A stretch of 64,000 bases of DNA. It comes from an uncultured Collinsella sp. GTDB lineage: Bacteria > Actinomycetota > Coriobacteriia > Coriobacteriales > Coriobacteriaceae. How positions within the stretch are numbered: position 1 is the stretch's first letter; every line of letters begins with the position of its first letter. The stretch covers positions 2,711 through 66,710 of the forward strand of contig UQIE01000006.1 in assembly GCA_900541065.1 (NCBI GenBank), read 5' to 3'. The translations under genes were made by a program, and so were the position numbers. A model generated the notes under the pieces. The model was not told the origin of the DNA and made no database searches. It saw nothing but the letters and a program-made list of their open reading frames with translations. Shown in pieces: positions 3,998 to 63,795 of this stretch.

Positions 3998-4028
3998 TGG
4001 TGCAAACGAACCTGTCTCCATGGCACCA
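3998..4028. repeat. Family B repeat, solo right-end-like unit (TGGTGCAAACGAACCTGTCTCCATGGCACCA)
   Basis: Matches the right terminal module of the family B elements at 35906-35971 and 45492-45635. Confidence 0.6.
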
Positions 4029-4088
4029 GATTGGTACGAAGGGGACGGATTGGTTTGCGCCAAATGGCAGAGAGACAGCGTTTTCCCA

Positions 4089-4140
4089 GATAAAACCTGC
4101 CAAAATAAACCTGTCCCTTTTTGGCAGGTTGGTCGTAGTT
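4089..4140. repeat. Family E repeat copy 1 (AGATAAAACCTGCCAAAATAAACCTGTCCCTTTTTGGCAGGTT), hairpin with 11-bp arms
   Basis: 43-bp near-identical copy at 17588-17639 (1 mismatch); internal inverted repeat ACCTGCCAAAA/TTTTGGCAGGT; related to family B end sequences. Confidence 0.7.
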
Positions 4141-10275: not shown

Positions 10276-11217
10276 ATGGCAGACGTCAAGAAAATCGCCA
10301 CGCGCGTAAGCTACGGCGAGGCTCTCGTCGAGCTCGCCAACGAGCACGATGACTTTGTGGTCCTCGACGCCGACCTGGCCGCCGCCACGCAGACCGGCAA
10401 GTTCAAGGCCGCCTGCCCCGACCGCTTTTTCGATGTGGGCATCGCCGAGAGCAACCTGATGGGTGTCGCCGCCGGTATCGCAACCACCGGCCGCGTCGCC
10501 TTCGCGAGCAGCTTTGCCATGTTTGCCGCCGGCCGCGCCTTTGAGCAGGTCCGCAACTCCATCGGCTACCCGCATCTCAACGTTAAGATCGGTGCCACGC
10601 ACGCCGGTATCTCGGTGGGCGAGGACGGCGCCACGCACCAGTGCTGCGAGGATATCGCCCTGATGCGCGTCATCCCCGGCATGACCGTGATCGTTCCCGC
10701 CGACGACGTCGAGGCCCGCGCCGTGACGCGTGCCGCCTACGAGTGCGACGGCCCCGTGTACATGCGCTTTGCCCGTCTGGCCTCGCCGGTTATCAACGAC
10801 CCCGAGACCTACAAGTTCGAGGTAGGCAAGGGCATCGTCATGCGCGAGGGCGCCGACGTCACCATCATCGCCTGCGGCCTGATGGTCGGCGAGGCGCTCG
10901 AGGCCGCTGAGCAGCTTGCTGCCGAGGGCATCGATTCCGAGGTCATCAACATGCACACCATCAAGCCCATCGATGCCGACCTGATCGTCAAGAGCGCCAC
11001 CAAGACCGGCCATGTCGTGACCGTCGAGGAGCACTCCGTGATCGGTGGCCTGGGCAGCGCCGTCGCCGACGTCCTGTGCGAGCAGTGCCCGACGCCGCTT
11101 AAGAAGATTGGCGTCAACGATACCTTCGGCGAGTCCGGTCCGGGTGCCGAGCTCCTGCACAAGTACGGCCTGGACGCCGCCGACATCGTGGCGACCACCA
11201 AGGAGTTCTTGGCCTAA
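10276..11217 (+). CDS. transketolase, C-terminal (pyrimidine-binding) subunit
   Basis: Start MADVKK directly after the stop of the N-subunit gene with a GAGAGGAG RBS; conserved C-terminal transketolase domain. Confidence 0.9.
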   Translation: MADVKKIATRVSYGEALVELANEHDDFVVLDADLAAATQTGKFKAACPDRFFDVGIAESNLMGVAAGIATTGRVAFASSFAMFAAGRAFEQVRNSIGYPHLNVKIGATHAGISVGEDGATHQCCEDIALMRVIPGMTVIVPADDVEARAVTRAAYECDGPVYMRFARLASPVINDPETYKFEVGKGIVMREGADVTIIACGLMVGEALEAAEQLAAEGIDSEVINMHTIKPIDADLIVKSATKTGHVVTVEEHSVIGGLGSAVADVLCEQCPTPLKKIGVNDTFGESGPGAELLHKYGLDAADIVATTKEFLA

Positions 11218-12691: not shown

Positions 12692-12760
12692 AAGTTGCGG
12701 TGAAATAGGGACTGATTAGGGCTTTTAACTGCTAAAACAGTCCCTATTTCACCGCAACTT
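12692..12760. repeat. Family A palindromic repeat (REP-like), copy A1
   Basis: AAGTTGCGGTGAAATAGGGACTG-N23-CAGTCCCTATTTCACCGCAACTT; 23-bp perfect inverted arms. Confidence 0.85.
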
Positions 12761-17587: not shown

Positions 17588-17639
17588 GGTAAAACCTACC
17601 AAAATAAACCTGTCCCTTTTTGGCAGGTTTACAAGAAAG
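17588..17639. repeat. Family E repeat copy 2, ending about 11 bp upstream of the recombinase start
   Basis: 43/44-bp match to 4089-4140. Confidence 0.7.
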
Positions 17640-17649
17640 CGGGGATGAG

Positions 17650-18255
17650 ATGGCGACGGTGTACGGTTATGCGCGGGTGAGTTCGCGCGATCAAAATCTT
17701 AATCGGCAGCTGGATGCGCTGGGCGCCTATGGTGTGGGCTCGGCGAATATTTATGCCGACCATGCGAGCGGCAAGGACTTCGATCGGCCGCATTATCGCG
17801 AGCTGCTACACGTCCTGGGAGACGGGGACGTGCTGGTGGTGCTTTCTATCGACCGACTTGGCCGTAATTACTCCGAGATTCTTGAGGAATGGCGACGCAT
17901 TACCAAGGAGCTCGGGGTTGCCATTGTGGTGTTGGACATGCCATTGCTTGACACGCGCGCCAGGGCCAGCGGCGCGCCGGATGTGACCAACGCCCTGATT
18001 GCCGATATTGTGCTGCAACTGCTGAGCTACGTGGCGCAGGTGGAGCGCGAGAATATCCATCGGCGCCAGGCGGAGGGAATTGCAGCGGCGCGGGCGCGAG
18101 GGGTCCGTTTCGGTCGACCTCGCAAGCCGTGCCCTCCTCAGTTTGAGCTGGTGCGCGATAGCTATGAGGCGGGCGATATTACCCGCAGCCAGGCAGCAAA
18201 GTGCCTGGGCGTGTGCGTGGGGACGTTCGATCGCTGGATGCGCGAGGCGGGGTAG
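17650..18255 (+). CDS. serine site-specific recombinase, resolvase/invertase family (Hin/Gin/Tn3-resolvase-like), about 200 aa
   Basis: N-terminal YGYARVSSRDQN catalytic-serine motif; C-terminal HTH (ITRSQAAKCLGVCVGTFDRWMRE). Confidence 0.88.
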   Translation: MATVYGYARVSSRDQNLNRQLDALGAYGVGSANIYADHASGKDFDRPHYRELLHVLGDGDVLVVLSIDRLGRNYSEILEEWRRITKELGVAIVVLDMPLLDTRARASGAPDVTNALIADIVLQLLSYVAQVERENIHRRQAEGIAAARARGVRFGRPRKPCPPQFELVRDSYEAGDITRSQAAKCLGVCVGTFDRWMREAG

Positions 18256-19425: not shown

Positions 19426-19612
19426 CGGCTGCGGAAAGTGCGACCCGTTTTGAGCGTTGATTCCGGGATGTGCTTTCCGGTTGAGCGCTCTATCGGAAAT
19501 GACATCCCGTTTCGAGCGCTGATTCTGGGACACGGTTTCCGGTTGAGGGCTCTACGGGAAAGTGGGGACCAGTTTGAGCTTGAAATCTGGGACGCACTTT
19601 CCGCCGGCGGGC
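19426..19612. repeat. tandem repeat: about 31-bp unit x about 5.6 copies, two alternating subtypes (about 62-bp super-unit x 3)
   Basis: Units such as GGAAAGTGCGACCCGTTTTGAGCGTTGATTCC and GGGATGTGCTTTCCGGTTGAGCGCTCTATC; begins directly after the spx-like stop. Confidence 0.8.
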
Positions 19613-19621
19613 CTGCCCCAG

Positions 19622-21960: not shown

Positions 21961-22028
21961 AAGTTGCGGTGGAATAGTTCCTGTTTGAGGCCAAATAGCC
22001 GACAAGCAGGAACTATTTCACCGCAATT
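21961..22028. repeat. Family A palindromic repeat, copy A2 (arm variant GTTCCTG/CAGGAAC)
   Basis: AAGTTGCGGTGGAATAGTTCCTG...CAGGAACTATTTCACCGCAATTT. Confidence 0.85.
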
Positions 22029-22983: not shown

Positions 22984-23039
22984 AGGGATCACGGCTGCTG
23001 TTAGCCGATCCTGTCTGTCGTGAGTCCGGCCGACCGTTT

Positions 23040-23335
23040 GTCTCAATCTGTAACATCTGGCGGCTCAAAACGGGTCTATCTGTTACAGATCGAGACAAAA
23101 GGTTGGAGCTGAAGAAATGTCTCGATCTGTAACATCTAGAAGCGGAAATCGGGTCCACTTGTTACAGATCGAGACAAACCAAAACCATCATTCTCAAAAT
23201 CTCAATCTGTAACATCTGACGGTAAAAACGGGGTCTACGTGTTACAGATTGAGACAAACGGAGCTGTCCCTCGGAATGATCTCGATCTGTAACATCTAGA
23301 CATCAAAAGCGGGTCTAGATGTTACAGATCGAGAC
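23040..23335. repeat. Family D hairpin-repeat array D1: 4 units of 57 bp (16-bp perfect inverted arms GTCTCGATCTGTAACA / TGTTACAGATCGAGAC around a 25-bp core) with 22-24-bp spacers
   Basis: Units at 23040-23096, 23119-23175, 23199-23255 and 23279-23335; not CRISPR (no cas genes, cores and spacers are semi-conserved). Confidence 0.9.
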
Positions 23336-23362
23336 GTTTGCCTAGGTGGACCCCCCGTTCCA

Positions 23363-24619: not shown

Positions 24620-24741
24620 GGTGAGCTCCTGCGTGCCGTTTGTTTGACGCCGCAAAGGATACCCGTTTTAGGCTCAAAAGTTAACCAAGACTAACAAAAT
24701 TGTTGTATTTGAATAGGATGGTGAAAGGGGATTGCTGAAAT

Positions 24742-24798
24742 GTCTTGATCTGTAACAACTAGGGATGGAAATTGGATCTTACTGTTACAGATTGAGAT
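24742..24798. repeat. Family D hairpin unit D2 (single, slightly degenerate) in the mntH/gltB divergent region
   Basis: TGTCTTGATCTGTAACA-N25-TGTTACAGATTGAGAT. Confidence 0.8.
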
Positions 24799-24982
24799 GT
24801 TTGAAGTGGTGAGTTTACAGGTCGAACTTGGGGCCCTTGTTGTCGCCCTTGAGGTCGGCGGCACCCACTCGTAGGGCGTGCGTTACGCGATTGTTTCGAA
24901 ACGGGCGGGAAACACAACGGGCCGGCGATGCTCCTAGTATGCCTGTTCAACTGACTGTCTAAATATCTAGGGGAGGATCGCG

Positions 24983-29683: not shown

Positions 29684-31165
<1,482 letters not shown>

Positions 31166-31176
31166 GGTAGTCATTC

Positions 31177-31214
31177 AAGAACGTCCCCAATGACTAGTCA
31201 TTGGGGACGTTCTT
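31177..31214. repeat. Family C: perfect 38-bp palindrome AAGAACGTCCCCAATGACTAGTCATTGGGGACGTTCTT followed by a T-run; likely bidirectional terminator for gltD
   Basis: Related GTCCCC-containing units at 360-480, 31215-31250, 45640-45690 and 57095-57150. Confidence 0.8.
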
Positions 31215-32240: not shown

Positions 32241-32280
32241 GGGACGGGCGGTTGTCGCCTGCCTTGCCTTCCGCCTTTAT

Positions 32281-32418
32281 GTCTCGATCTGTAACGTTTA
32301 GAGGCCGTTTGGGGCCGTAACTGTTACAGATTGAGACAAAGAGGTGCAATGCTGCACGAATGTCTCGATTTGTAACGTTTGGCGGTCAAAAATCGGTCTT
32401 CCTGTTACAGATCAAGAC
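32281..32418. repeat. Family D hairpin-repeat array D3 (2 units, cores in opposite orientation)
   Basis: Units at 32281-32337 and 32362-32418; arms GTCTCGATCTGTAACG / TGTTACAGATTGAGAC. Confidence 0.9.
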
Positions 32419-32444
32419 GTTTGCCGACGGCGGCAACGGTGACA

Positions 32445-33515: not shown

Positions 33516-33557
33516 GGGGTGCGGCTGACGCGGGTGTGGTTGTTCCTACCGAGTTTG

Positions 33558-33774
33558 TCTCGATCTGTAACAACAAGGGGCCGTTTGGCCTCGTAACTGT
33601 TACAGATCGAGACAGAAGGTTGGCTGCCGCTAAAAGATCTCAATCTGTAACATCTAGAGGCCGAAAACCTGTCTAACTGTTACAGATCGAGACAAAGGTT
33701 GGACGAGGTGCCGAAAGATCTTGTTCTGTAACATTTGGCTGCTAAAACCCGGTCCACCTGTTACAGATTGAGAC
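33558..33774. repeat. Family D hairpin-repeat array D4 (3 units)
   Basis: Units at 33558-33614, 33638-33694 and 33718-33774; spacers contain AAGGTTGG as in D1. Confidence 0.9.
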
Positions 33775-33923
33775 ATTTCCCGGACGTCGCTGGGGTGGGA
33801 CTGCAACGCGTTCCGTTCTCCGTATCTCCTCCTTTCTCCGTTAACCGATATGTCCGCAGCAATCCCGCTGCACTGGGTAATAATGGACAAATGTTCAAGT
33901 TAATCGTGAGGGAGGAGCTCGAT

Positions 33924-35905: not shown

Positions 35906-35971
35906 TGGTGCATTGGGGACAGGTTAATCTGCACCAAGGTGGTGCAAACGTACCTGTCCCCCCCTGCACCA
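35906..35971. repeat. Family B MITE-like element, complete minimal copy (left end directly abuts right end)
   Basis: TGGTGCATTGGGGACAGGTTAATCTGCACCA-agg-TGGTGCAAACGTACCTGTCCCCCCCTGCACCA; the ends are inverted repeats of each other. Confidence 0.75.
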
Positions 35972-36290: not shown

Positions 36291-36358
36291 GTTGCGGTGA
36301 AATAGTTCCTGATTGAAGGCTTAAAGCGTTTAAACCGGAACTATTTCACCGCAACTTC
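36291..36358. repeat. Family A palindromic repeat, copy A3, inside the cop operon between copZ and csoR
   Basis: AGTTGCGGTGAAATAGTTCCTG...CCGGAACTATTTCACCGCAACTT. Confidence 0.85.
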
Positions 36359-39117: not shown

Positions 39118-39270
39118 GGCTTCTCCTTTCTGTGGCGTAGTGTTGGAATTGTTAACCTGCCGATACTATACACCCATACCCCCTGGGGGTGTCCAGTGGA
39201 GATTGAAATGTATGACATTCTGGTATTGGTCGAGGTGATAGCCAGGTCGGCGGACCGTAGCCGGTCTAAT

Positions 39271-39488
39271 GTCTCAATCTGTAACAACTAGACCCGTTTT
39301 TGTCGAGTAACTGTTACAGATCGAGACATTACATCGAGCCACAACTTAACGTCTCAACCTGTAACGCCTAAGGACCGTTTTTCCTGCTAGATGTTACAGA
39401 TCGAGACAAACCGTCCGCGGTCAACTCAAATGTCTTGATTTGTAACATCTAGAGAGGTTTTTGACCCCTTACTGTTACAGATCGAGAC
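39271..39488. repeat. Family D hairpin-repeat array D5 (3 units)
   Basis: Units at 39271-39327, 39351-39407 and 39432-39488. Confidence 0.9.
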
Positions 39489-39530
39489 AATTGCCGGGGA
39501 GGGGTCCCGTCACGGCAAGACGCCCGCCGC

Positions 39531-42779: not shown

Positions 42780-42928
42780 TATGGCGATAGGAATTAATGG
42801 CCCCCGGTGGGCGACGTATTAAATGGCTGCGCAATATATAGCGTAACCAAAGCAACATTATAGGCCACATGTTCGAAATTGCAGGAAGACCGAGAGATTT
42901 TGGTTGGACTGAACGGAAATCCCCCTCT

Positions 42929-42985
42929 GTCTTGTTCTATAACATTTGGACCCGGTTTTGCCCTGCATCTGTTACAGATTGACAC
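42929..42985. repeat. Family D hairpin unit D6 (single, degenerate)
   Basis: TGTCTTGTTCTATAACA-N-TGTTACAGATTGACAC. Confidence 0.65.
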
Positions 42986-43256
42986 AATCGGCCAGGCCCA
43001 CCTCGTCCGCCTCGTCATCTGTGGTTTACGTGGGGGCATGCGAAGCGCGGGTATACTAACCGGCGGCGAATCTGCTCCATCGCTTAGAGCTGCTGCGTCT
43101 GGACGGCGCGTGATAGGGCTGCCAAAGCGATCGCCAGCGTGCTGAGCAACGTCCTCTCTGTGCGCACCTGTTTTTGTATGTATTAGCGCACTACCAAGCA
43201 CGCTCGCGCGGCCGCATGCCGTGCCCATAACGCGTGCAGATAAGGAACAACAACAT

Positions 43257-45425
<2,169 letters not shown>

Positions 45426-45491
45426 CATACGCATCGCACGCTAGAGCGAGGCGAACTAAGGGCCCCGAGCAACTACGCTCGGGGCCCTTTT

Positions 45492-45635
45492 TGGTGCAAT
45501 GGGGCCAGGTTAATCTGCATCAACGTCTTGAAGTTGCGGTGGAATACGGACTGTTTTGGCCTTTTGAGCGGCTTTGCAGTCCCTATTTCACCGCAACTCA
45601 TGATTGGTGCAAACAAACCTGACCCCATTGCACCA
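45492..45635. repeat. Family B MITE-like element carrying a nested family A repeat (A4 at 45531-45598)
   Basis: Left end TGGTGCAATGGGGCCAGGTTAATCTGCATCA, right end TGGTGCAAACAAACCTGACCCCATTGCACCA; the family A copy has one arm mismatch. Confidence 0.8.
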
Positions 45636-45881
45636 GAGCAAGGAGTGTCCCCGGGTGCCGGCAGAAAAGGAACGTCCCTAAGTGCCGCCTAAATACCGTT
45701 CATCGGTCATAATGGTTGCTCCGGCTTTGGACTTGGTCTACAATAGCTCCCGTCAAAAGAAATGCGGAAGGTTACCGAGTCCCTCGGACGTGGGCCTAAC
45801 CAAAGTCTTTGAACGGGTGTGTCTCTATGGATGCATTCGCTTGATTTTGGTTGGGCTATATTTATGAAGGGACATGCCACC

Positions 45882-56916: not shown

Positions 56917-57138
56917 ATGGCAGAACACATGACCCCCATAGTCGCGAAGGTCTTGCCCGAGGAGAAGGCGGCCTTCGCGGCGGCAACCCAGCTCGTGGGC
57001 ACCACGCCGTCCAACGCCATCCGCATGTTTATCGCCGCGTTCAATCGCTGCGGCACCTTCCCGTTTGACATCTCGCCCAACGGGGCCTTTGGCAAAGAGT
57101 GTCCCCAACAGCTAGTCGTTGAAGAACGTCCCCAATGA
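56917..57138 (+). CDS. RelB/DinJ-family antitoxin-like small protein (no cognate toxin adjacent); 3' end runs into family C repeats
   Basis: MAEHMTPIVAKVLPEEKAAFAAATQLVGTTPSNAIRMFIAAFNRCGTFPFD resembles a DinJ ribbon-helix-helix antitoxin. Confidence 0.55.
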   Translation: MAEHMTPIVAKVLPEEKAAFAAATQLVGTTPSNAIRMFIAAFNRCGTFPFDISPNGAFGKECPQQLVVEERPQ

Positions 57139-57161
57139 CTAGTCGTCGGGAGGAGGTTGGC

Positions 57162-63726: not shown

Positions 63727-63795
63727 AAGTTGCGGTGAAATAGGGACTGTTTGGCGGTTTTAAACGCTCAAACAGTCCCTATTTCACCGCAATTT
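63727..63795. repeat. Family A palindromic repeat, copy A5, between convergent genes
   Basis: AAGTTGCGGTGAAATAGGGACTG...CAGTCCCTATTTCACCGCAATTT. Confidence 0.85.

Follow-up and report, generated by a model that had tools for sequence, protein, structure and literature searches.

The arrangement at 45492-45635 raises the question of how one small intergenic repeat came to lie within another, and whether the nesting records a recent movement of either. The window, by which we mean the whole 64-kb stretch of DNA that was analysed, comes from an uncultured Collinsella sp. Reading of the sequence confirmed the nested repeat described in the initial annotation: the composite consists of two 31-nt family B units in inverted orientation flanking a family A hairpin, in the order TGGTGCAATGGGGCCAGGTTAATCTGCATCA, a 10-nt stretch ACGTCTTGAA, a palindrome of 65 nt GTTGCGGTGGAATACGGACTG...CAGTCCCTATTTCACCGCAAC, a 7-nt stretch TCATGAT, and TGGTGCAAACAAACCTGACCCCATTGCACCA. 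It is located between the terminator of a DEAD-box helicase gene, identified by its Pfam DEAD and Helicase_C domains, and a PTS EIIA / BglG-type antiterminator operon. The features of the composite and its borders are as follows.

45460-45492, plus strand: intrinsic terminator that ends the DEAD-box helicase gene, with the structure GGGCCCCGAGC-loop-GCTCGGGGCCC and a T5 run, read from the sequence
45492-45522, plus strand: left family B unit TGGTGCAATGGGGCCAGGTTAATCTGCATCA, TGGTGCA-ATGGGGCCAGGTTAATC-TGCATCA, from sequence and core matches; orthologous to the left unit of the empty doublets
45525-45603, plus strand: inserted segment of 79 nt (boundary +/-1 nt), comprising GTCTTGAA, the 65-nt family A core and TCATGA, from the alignment of filled with empty sites
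45533-45597, plus strand: family A core GTTGCGGTGGAATACGG...CTATTTCACCGCAAC, a 65-nt hairpin whose palindrome reaches about 45530-45600
45605-45635, minus strand: right family B unit TGGTGCAAACAAACCTGACCCCATTGCACCA, TGGTGCA-AACAAACCTGACCCCAT-TGCACCA, inverted, from sequence and core matches
45636-45690, plus strand: family F repeat (GAGTGTCCCC... GAACGTCCC...) adjoining the composite, present in all orthologs at the site and also elsewhere in the window

The two B units of the composite are reverse complements of each other save for 4 nt beside CAGGTT, and the first base of the left unit is also the last T of the helicase terminator, which was not among the predictions of a consensus terminator scan of the window. 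In the nested A core, each arm measures about 21-24 nt and the central loop about 17-23 nt. As single-stranded DNA the composite was predicted to fold into one continuous hairpin with A at its tip (dG -46.9 kcal/mol, z -9.0). At the gathering threshold, Rfam matched only two tRNAs and the L31-Coriobacteria leader in the window, and a permissive threshold applied to 45440-45830 returned only sub-threshold matches at chance level. The arginine/glycine-rich C-terminal tail of the helicase also contains an internal repeat, at 45036-45092 and 45363-45419.

Family B has the consensus TTGGTGCA-WWGGGGNCAGGTTNNTY-TGCACCAA, or TGGTGCA-N17-TGCACCA in its palindromic 31-nt form, with a stem of 7-8 bp, a loop of 15-17 nt, and a 17-nt interior that contains GGGGNCAGGTT. 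Within the window, the 20-nt core was matched four times at up to three mismatches, compared to 0.03 matches expected from shuffles, and five intact units and one decayed unit occupy three sites in 64 kb, all of them intergenic. The two sites other than the composite are these.

35906-35971, plus strand: empty B doublet with units at 35906-35936 and 35940-35971 and the spacer AGG, from sequence and core matches
3998-4062, plus strand: tail-to-tail B doublet with an intact unit at 3998-4028, the spacer GAT and a decayed unit at 4032-4062 (TGGTACGAAGGGGACGGATTGGTTTGCGCCA), from ortholog comparison

The doublet at 35906-35971, correctly recognized in the initial annotation as the empty form, has minus-strand genes on both sides, one encoding a CsoR-like repressor and the other located downstream of that gene, and was predicted to form a simple hairpin of 65-66 nt (-25.1 kcal/mol, z -6.6). 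The other lies downstream of the rpmE terminator. Its intact unit had been taken for a solo right-end module, but because a decayed partner follows at 4032-4062 after a 3-nt spacer, it is better described as half of an old doublet. The unit orthologous to the decayed one is intact in four genomes with tail-to-tail doublets (L004, L010, L091 and L094), and at this same site one genome lacks exactly one unit plus spacer (34 nt) and another has the second unit flipped.

A scan with the B core, taking one genome per species, returned at least 120 loci. Those listed belong almost exclusively to Collinsella and other Coriobacteriaceae genomes, nearly all of human-gut origin, with several bearing the label C. 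aerofaciens. The window itself is placed in the Collinsella aerofaciens complex, and its L31-Coriobacteria leader fits a source of this kind. Our literature searches for REP or MITE repeats in Collinsella or Coriobacteriaceae found no description of these repeats. The 120 listed loci and the window together hold at least 189 units at 141 or more places. Because Collinsella is divided into very many species-level genomes, the 120 loci represent only 16 orthologous site clusters, and a figure of many copies per genome is an extrapolation rather than a count. In a strict census of the matches listed, we found at least 89 single units, at least 33 doublets in head-to-head arrangement separated by 3 nt (all of them without A, and spread over nine of the 16 site clusters), and at least five tail-to-tail doublets with spacers of 2-3 nt, as well as tandem pairs, one triplet and three doublets with a 13-nt spacer. 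Three further doublets with an 82-nt spacer all represent the composite site of the window. Unit number and orientation varied between orthologous sites within clusters, and at one other site, where two genomes have a single unit, a third genome has a perfect inverted duplicate of it. Many units adjoin terminator T-runs. The repeated entity of family B is the 31-nt unit rather than the doublet. The initial view of B as a MITE-like element with terminal modules was therefore abandoned, since its supposed ends are independent units that also occur singly, tail-to-tail, in tandem and as a triplet.

Comparison of orthologous sites established the order of events. Among the matches listed, an empty 65-nt doublet occupies the site in 19 genomes (14 loci of the genome collection and five further assemblies). 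Filled orthologs differ from empty ones solely by 79 additional bases, placed at the 3-nt spacer that forms the apex of the doublet hairpin. Alignment of four filled contigs (L201, L191, L178 and L197) with seven empty loci (L068, L098, L034, L075, L003, L101 and L070) demonstrated that the insert replaces the last base of the spacer, so that ...TGCACCAAC/C/TGGTGCA... in the empty state corresponds to ...TGCATCAAC/GTCTTGAA-core-TCATGAT/TGGTGCA... in the filled state, with no duplication. Since related genomes carry the empty doublet at the same site, B was there first and A came later; the nesting thus gives a relative order of insertion, as had been proposed. All filled copies among the matches listed are joined to B through ACGTCTTGAA and TCATGAT, or through sequences one base different from these, and because this is one junction pair, the insertion of A was a single event. 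The flanks of these copies diverge by as much as about 15%. It was also an old event on the scale of the Collinsella aerofaciens complex, given that the flanks of filled lineages are 83-92% identical to the window and that the nested A cores have a mean identity of 93% to each other. The suggestion that these elements were recently mobile was not sustained by the one shared junction pair, by the age of the flanks, or by the loops of A copies at different sites, which are described below.

Among the genome-collection loci listed, A was present at this site only in the window, L085 and L106, and all three also lack a gene for a 253-aa protein with a 4Fe-4S ferredoxin domain. In most relatives this gene is part of a 1.33-kb segment (L003 1007-2340; compare window 45488-45492) between the helicase terminator and the B doublet. 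The deletion in the lineage of the window ends exactly at the left B unit, where there is TTG microhomology with the sequence that follows the terminator. A scan of metagenomes for any end of a B unit followed within 15 nt by an A arm returned at least 120 contigs. Many of those listed were filled, and four of these (L201, L191, L178 and L197) had kept the ferredoxin-like gene. When only those listed loci were counted whose upstream sequence was long enough to judge both features, 14 were empty with the gene, four were filled with the gene, 15 were filled without it, and none was empty without it. Insertion and loss of the gene therefore took place separately, the insertion being the earlier. 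Filled and empty states interleave when loci are ranked by flank identity, and ten contigs that encode an identical EIIA protein comprise five empty sites with the gene, four filled sites without it, and one deletion remnant; given this interleaving, recombination between lineages, or repeated loss, may have occurred at the site.

Further changes have affected both the composite and the plain doublet. In the NCBI genome assembly GCA_028209535.1 (L248, about 2652-2760), nearly all of the B-A-B structure has been deleted between two CCAG tetranucleotides, leaving TGGTGCAAAGGGGCCAG/AGCAAGG straight after the helicase terminator. At 176-1706 of a contig labelled Ruminococcus (L007), whose sequence matches Collinsella loci, an IS3-family element has inserted into the right unit of an otherwise standard B doublet with a 3-bp AAA duplication, indicating that B serves as a target for other mobile DNA. 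This element encodes OrfA with an HTH_Tnp_1 domain and OrfB with an rve domain. The left B units of filled copies have patchwork interiors, with the tails AATC, CATA or GGTT, which are variants known from other B copies. The B doublet is 95.8% identical among empty loci, close to the 93-94% of its surroundings, and we rejected the idea that it is under extra constraint. Filled and empty sites differed only slightly in the decay of the B arms, an unconvincing basis for proposing that an internal A speeds up the decay of the arms.

Family A is a distinct repeat, an imperfect palindrome of about 65-80 nt with a hairpin of about 67-79 nt. Its core was 65 nt long in 52 of the 55 distinct sequences among the matches listed. 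In most cases the palindrome continues for another one to three bases beyond the core (TAA-core-TTA), so that the stem reaches up to 27 bp around a loop of 17 nt. In the window the A arm gave 10 matches, equivalent to five copies, compared to 0.05 expected. The four copies outside the composite, all identified by arm matches, are as follows.

12694-12758, no strand assigned: family A copy without B association
21963-22027, no strand assigned: family A copy of the GTTCCTG inner-stem subtype
36291-36355, no strand assigned: family A copy of the GTTCCTG inner-stem subtype
63729-63793, no strand assigned: family A copy

Across 17 independent sites, the outer stems of A are nearly invariant, but the loops are only 39-65% identical, indicating that the family is old. 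The inner stem occurs in subtypes that are changed on both sides (GGGACTG/CAGTCCC, CGGAC/GTCCG, GTTCCTG/CAGGAAC and GATATAG/CTATATC). In the stem, 86.9% of alignment cells pair and seven pairs are altered on both sides, with a covariation score of 0.208 compared to 0.110 in shuffles (0 of 500 shuffles scored as high). Family A is thus an old family whose hairpin stem is maintained, either by selection or by the copying mechanism. Loops that have diverged so far between paralogs suggest that the copies are old, or that the stem is under selection, rather than that transposition continues. The numbers of G.T and A.C mismatches were too small, and the orientation too ambiguous, for a strand bias to be assessed. 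Fifteen other A sites have no B nearby, so family A must also spread without B. Presence and absence were confirmed for two other A copies (L096 compared to L078, and L105 compared to L115), with flanks too diverged to place exact ends. A scan of viral contigs found A in two contigs and B in none, and gave no evidence that phages carry either family. In one nested variant (L181, about 2084-2210), TCATGA is present at both A junctions, which makes the two ends symmetrical and may reflect a 'correction' of the hairpin to perfect palindromy.

Among the matches listed, the copy most similar to the nested A was found at a second, non-orthologous place, here called site 2, where a single B unit adjoins A in at least 59 metagenome contigs (for example L122, reverse strand, about 10944-11046). 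Among the metagenome contigs listed, L132 is a further place with A beside a single B unit. The site 2 A is the closest paralog of the nested A among the matches listed, being 88% identical and in the same orientation relative to B. The two have identical arms, including the irregularities of one G.T pair and one C/C mismatch, and share the junction A-TCAT(GA)T-TGGTGCAAA, which was present in no other A copy among the matches listed. These three observations indicate that the nested and site 2 copies are directly related. Copy densities in the window roughly suggest that a few A-B adjacencies per genome would arise by chance, and we therefore make no claim that A targets B. Any target preference of A, or a targeting of the hairpin apex, would be based on this one nested site.

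Two further repeat families share sequence with B. Family E, represented in the window at 4089-4140 and 17588-17639, forms a hairpin with a stem of 12 bp (AACCTGCCAAAA/TTTTGGCAGGTT). Its loop (TAAACCTGTCCCT) is strongly conserved, and the left flank of the hairpin (CCCAGATAA) is conserved too. Its proposed similarity to the B core held up, in that AACCTGTCCC is located in the loop of E's own 12-bp hairpin. We found E at 12 or more unrelated sites in the loci, always just upstream of genes, which include secA, a serine recombinase gene and a gene in L022. One such gene, at 17620-18255 of the window, encodes a small serine recombinase (Pfam Resolvase, about 200 aa) among housekeeping genes and directly after an E copy. 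The idea that the E copies at 4089 and 17588 are recombination sites of this enzyme was dropped, as E is present at so many unrelated sites. Family F is built of two modules, each consisting of (G/C)GTCCCC and a short palindrome after it, and is found at 45636-45690, 413-470, 31165-31205 and 57088-57145. It shares GTCCCCAATG with the right B unit, suggesting, on sequence resemblance, that families B, E and F have a recognition motif in common.

Target-site duplications beyond chance were found neither for family A nor for family B. The longest direct repeat at B junctions averaged 1.6 nt compared to 1.5 nt at random, and that at A junctions averaged 1.5 nt compared to 1.75 nt, with none greater than 1 nt at the nested copy. 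Searches for enzymes covered about 1.8 Mb of Collinsella DNA, a biased sample. In this sample we found no RAYT or Y1 gene flanked by A or B (tblastn with IS608 TnpA and E. coli RAYT sequences as queries), and no autonomous element in which A arms form distant terminal repeats around a gene. The sole IS200-like gene in the sample (L210 8264-8662, Pfam Y1_Tnp), which lies beside a tRNA gene, was rejected as a mobiliser of A or B, having hairpins of its own (CCACCCCTAAAAGGGGTGG and CCCACCCGCATAGCGGGTGG) and no flanking A or B. Also rejected as mobilising enzymes were an Mbeg1-like gene between two B units in direct orientation, and the IS3-family element of L007, which was inserted into the doublet and has unrelated ends (TGAACTGCATCCC).

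The reading that we favour, and consider probable, is that B consists of Collinsella-specific REP-like 31-nt units and that A is a separate hairpin, which was inserted once into an older doublet and was followed by deletions. By this account, a B doublet downstream of the DEAD-box helicase gene and the ferredoxin-like gene existed first. One 79-nt copy of A then entered the 3-nt spacer of the doublet a single time, at the apex of a hairpin or cruciform, to give a single 144-nt hairpin. Part of the filled lineage, including that of the window, later lost 1.33 kb with the ferredoxin-like gene, joining the helicase terminator to the left B unit, and at least one strain deleted the long palindrome almost completely. 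By analogy with known systems, A may have arrived as a non-autonomous hairpin mobilised in trans, through a duplication-free attack on the exposed apex of the palindrome, which would resemble the targeting of REP sequences by IS elements or single-strand transposition of the HUH type.

For the mechanism by which A arrived, the main rival is homologous recombination or gene conversion from a paralogous B-A site, in which A and a neighbouring B unit were copied between B-containing loci. We judge this to be improbable, though still to be reckoned with. In its favour, the site 2 copy has 88% identity, identical irregular arms, and a position directly beside B in the same relative orientation and with the otherwise unique junction; the absence of target-site duplications around A and B, and the resemblance of the patchwork B interiors at the filled site to conversion from other B copies, are likewise consistent with such an exchange. 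However, the left junction ACGTCTTGAA and the left flank have no similarity to site 2, the homology on one side is only about 31 nt long and imperfect, and 15 other A sites have no adjacent B; the transfer could have run in either direction. It is very unlikely that the 144-nt composite is ancestral and that the 65-nt doublets arose by precise loss of A. Long palindromes are unstable, as the L248 deletion between CCAG microhomologies at this same site demonstrates, and the interleaving of filled and empty loci, together with the finding that the empty state never accompanies loss of the ferredoxin-like gene, would fit repeated loss. Every such loss would nevertheless have to restore the 3-nt spacer exactly, whereas the sole observed deletion, that in L248, is imprecise. 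The empty doublets are built like the 33 or more doublets of other site clusters, in none of which A or a footprint of it was found among the matches listed. The doublets of empty loci are as similar to each other as their surroundings are, which fits simple vertical inheritance. The idea that the A-like sequence is an integral part of a longer B element was also put to the test and failed, given that the 33 doublets of the same architecture in other site clusters contain neither A nor a footprint of it (among the matches listed) and that A occurs at 15 sites free of B.

A different possibility is that A and B are mainly functional elements of the host, such as transcribed hairpins (stabilisers of mRNA 3' ends, terminators or insulators) or protein-binding sites, and that they became nested incidentally, since intergenic positions of one and the same kind are the only ones where either is tolerated. 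We regard this as unlikely, though by no means implausible, and it is compatible with A having been an insertion. Conservation of the A stems through compensatory changes while the loops diverge, the nearly fixed length of the core, and the retention of copies at orthologous sites across many species-level genomes all point in this direction, as do the frequent abutment of B on terminator T-runs and the presence of GTCCCC(AATG) or AACCTGTCCC beside or inside the different hairpins of B, E and F. Weighing against it, the B doublet is conserved no better than neighbouring non-coding DNA, the number and orientation of B units vary freely between orthologs, the B arms took many substitutions after A was inserted, one strain lost the whole element, and Rfam gave no match. 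That the nested arrangement is an artefact of assembling palindromic repeats is extremely improbable: although the comparison sequences are mostly metagenome assemblies or MAGs, in which palindromes can be misassembled, the 144-nt arrangement with the same junctions was present in dozens of independent assemblies, and the empty doublet was found in cultured-isolate assemblies labelled Collinsella aerofaciens (L036 and L098).

Returning to the favoured reading of B as REP-like units and A as an inserted hairpin, both families can be compared with repeat systems that are already known. REP, BIME and REPIN repeats of Proteobacteria are associated with RAYT Y1 transposases (PMC2817692, PMC3333891, PMC3337134, PMC3116915); REP sequences carry a conserved head, GT(A/G)G, on the 5' side of the palindrome, and the cognate RAYT gene lies between two inverted units (PMC2817692). 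Like these, B is a palindromic unit about 30 nt long that is intergenic, often lies at the 3' ends of genes, and occurs singly or in clusters of alternating orientation with short linkers; its inverted doublet forms a long 65-nt hairpin, as in a REPIN, it has no target-site duplication, and it is used as a target by an IS. Unlike REP, B resides in an actinobacterial host (Coriobacteriia), its spacers are uniform at 2-3 nt, and its stem is only 7-8 bp around a conserved, non-palindromic interior of 15-17 nt. B works like the REP/BIME family; it is not classed as a member, since its consensus has no GT(A/G)G head, containing neither GTAG nor GTGG, and no B-flanked RAYT gene was found in the sample of about 1.8 Mb.

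REPs are known targets of IS elements (PMC1525189): IS1397 and ISKpn1 insert into palindromic units, and ISPpu9 and ISPpu10 likewise into REP sequences (PMC1525189, PMC12288879). The IS3-family element inside B in L007 parallels these insertions. The nested A resembles them in being a foreign element within a palindromic repeat, at the apex of the B hairpin, and differs in being non-coding, only 79 nt long, without a target duplication, and known from one nested site. Long imperfect-palindrome repeats include ERIC/IRU, Correia elements (CREE), RUP and bacterial MITEs (PMC3184786, PMC10969869), and A is similar to them as an imperfect palindrome with many intergenic copies and sequence subfamilies. 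Its arms, like those of a MITE, are inverted repeats that bound the element. In contrast to Correia elements, which duplicate TA, A has no target-site duplication, and no parent IS with the same terminal repeats was found in the sample of about 1.8 Mb. A young MITE burst would also differ from A, in which the stem is conserved and the loop sequence is not. Nested and composite arrangements of small repeats are known for elements of the MITE/ERIC type.

We conclude that A and B, which had not been described before, are Collinsella representatives of a well-known class of repeats, the small palindromes found between genes, and that the nesting of such repeats and the insertion of IS elements into them are familiar phenomena, of which the nesting seen here is an old and ordinary case. 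The value of the locus is mainly descriptive, in that Collinsella is an abundant genus of the human gut whose genomes are full of small families of palindromic repeats. The series of states at the site, from doublet to nested hairpin, loss of the neighbouring gene and collapse of the palindrome, is datable and might be used as a marker of strains or lineages, and it illustrates how palindromic repeats promote local rearrangement. For those who assemble or annotate genomes, it demonstrates that palindromes create real structural polymorphism between near-identical loci. No new mechanism is revealed, and the mobilisation of REP-like repeats outside Proteobacteria becomes only slightly easier to test.

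On a more speculative note, the motifs common to several families would be compatible with a putative REPIN-like system that operates without RAYT. In such a system, B, E, F and perhaps A and D1 would share the GTCCCC(AATG)/AACCTGTCCC signal for a protein derived from the host or from a transposon, and a single-strand mechanism, templated by hairpins and leaving no target duplication, would copy, invert and disperse the units. We hold this to be doubtful; to our knowledge, a RAYT-free system of this kind has not been described in Actinobacteria.

The window also contains repeats other than those discussed above. A third hairpin family, TGTCTCGATCTGTAACA-N25-TGTTACAGATCGAGACA, is 59 nt long and has 14 copies in the window, within 23027-23336, 24729-24799, 32268-32419, 33556-33775, 39258-39489 and 42916-42986. 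These copies mostly form tandem arrays of two to four with a period of 79-81 nt, and their stems are conserved and their loops diverged, as in family A. At 19432-19617, three tandem units of 62 nt lie in a gene-free stretch of 678 nt upstream of the tRNA-Gln and tRNA-Glu genes.
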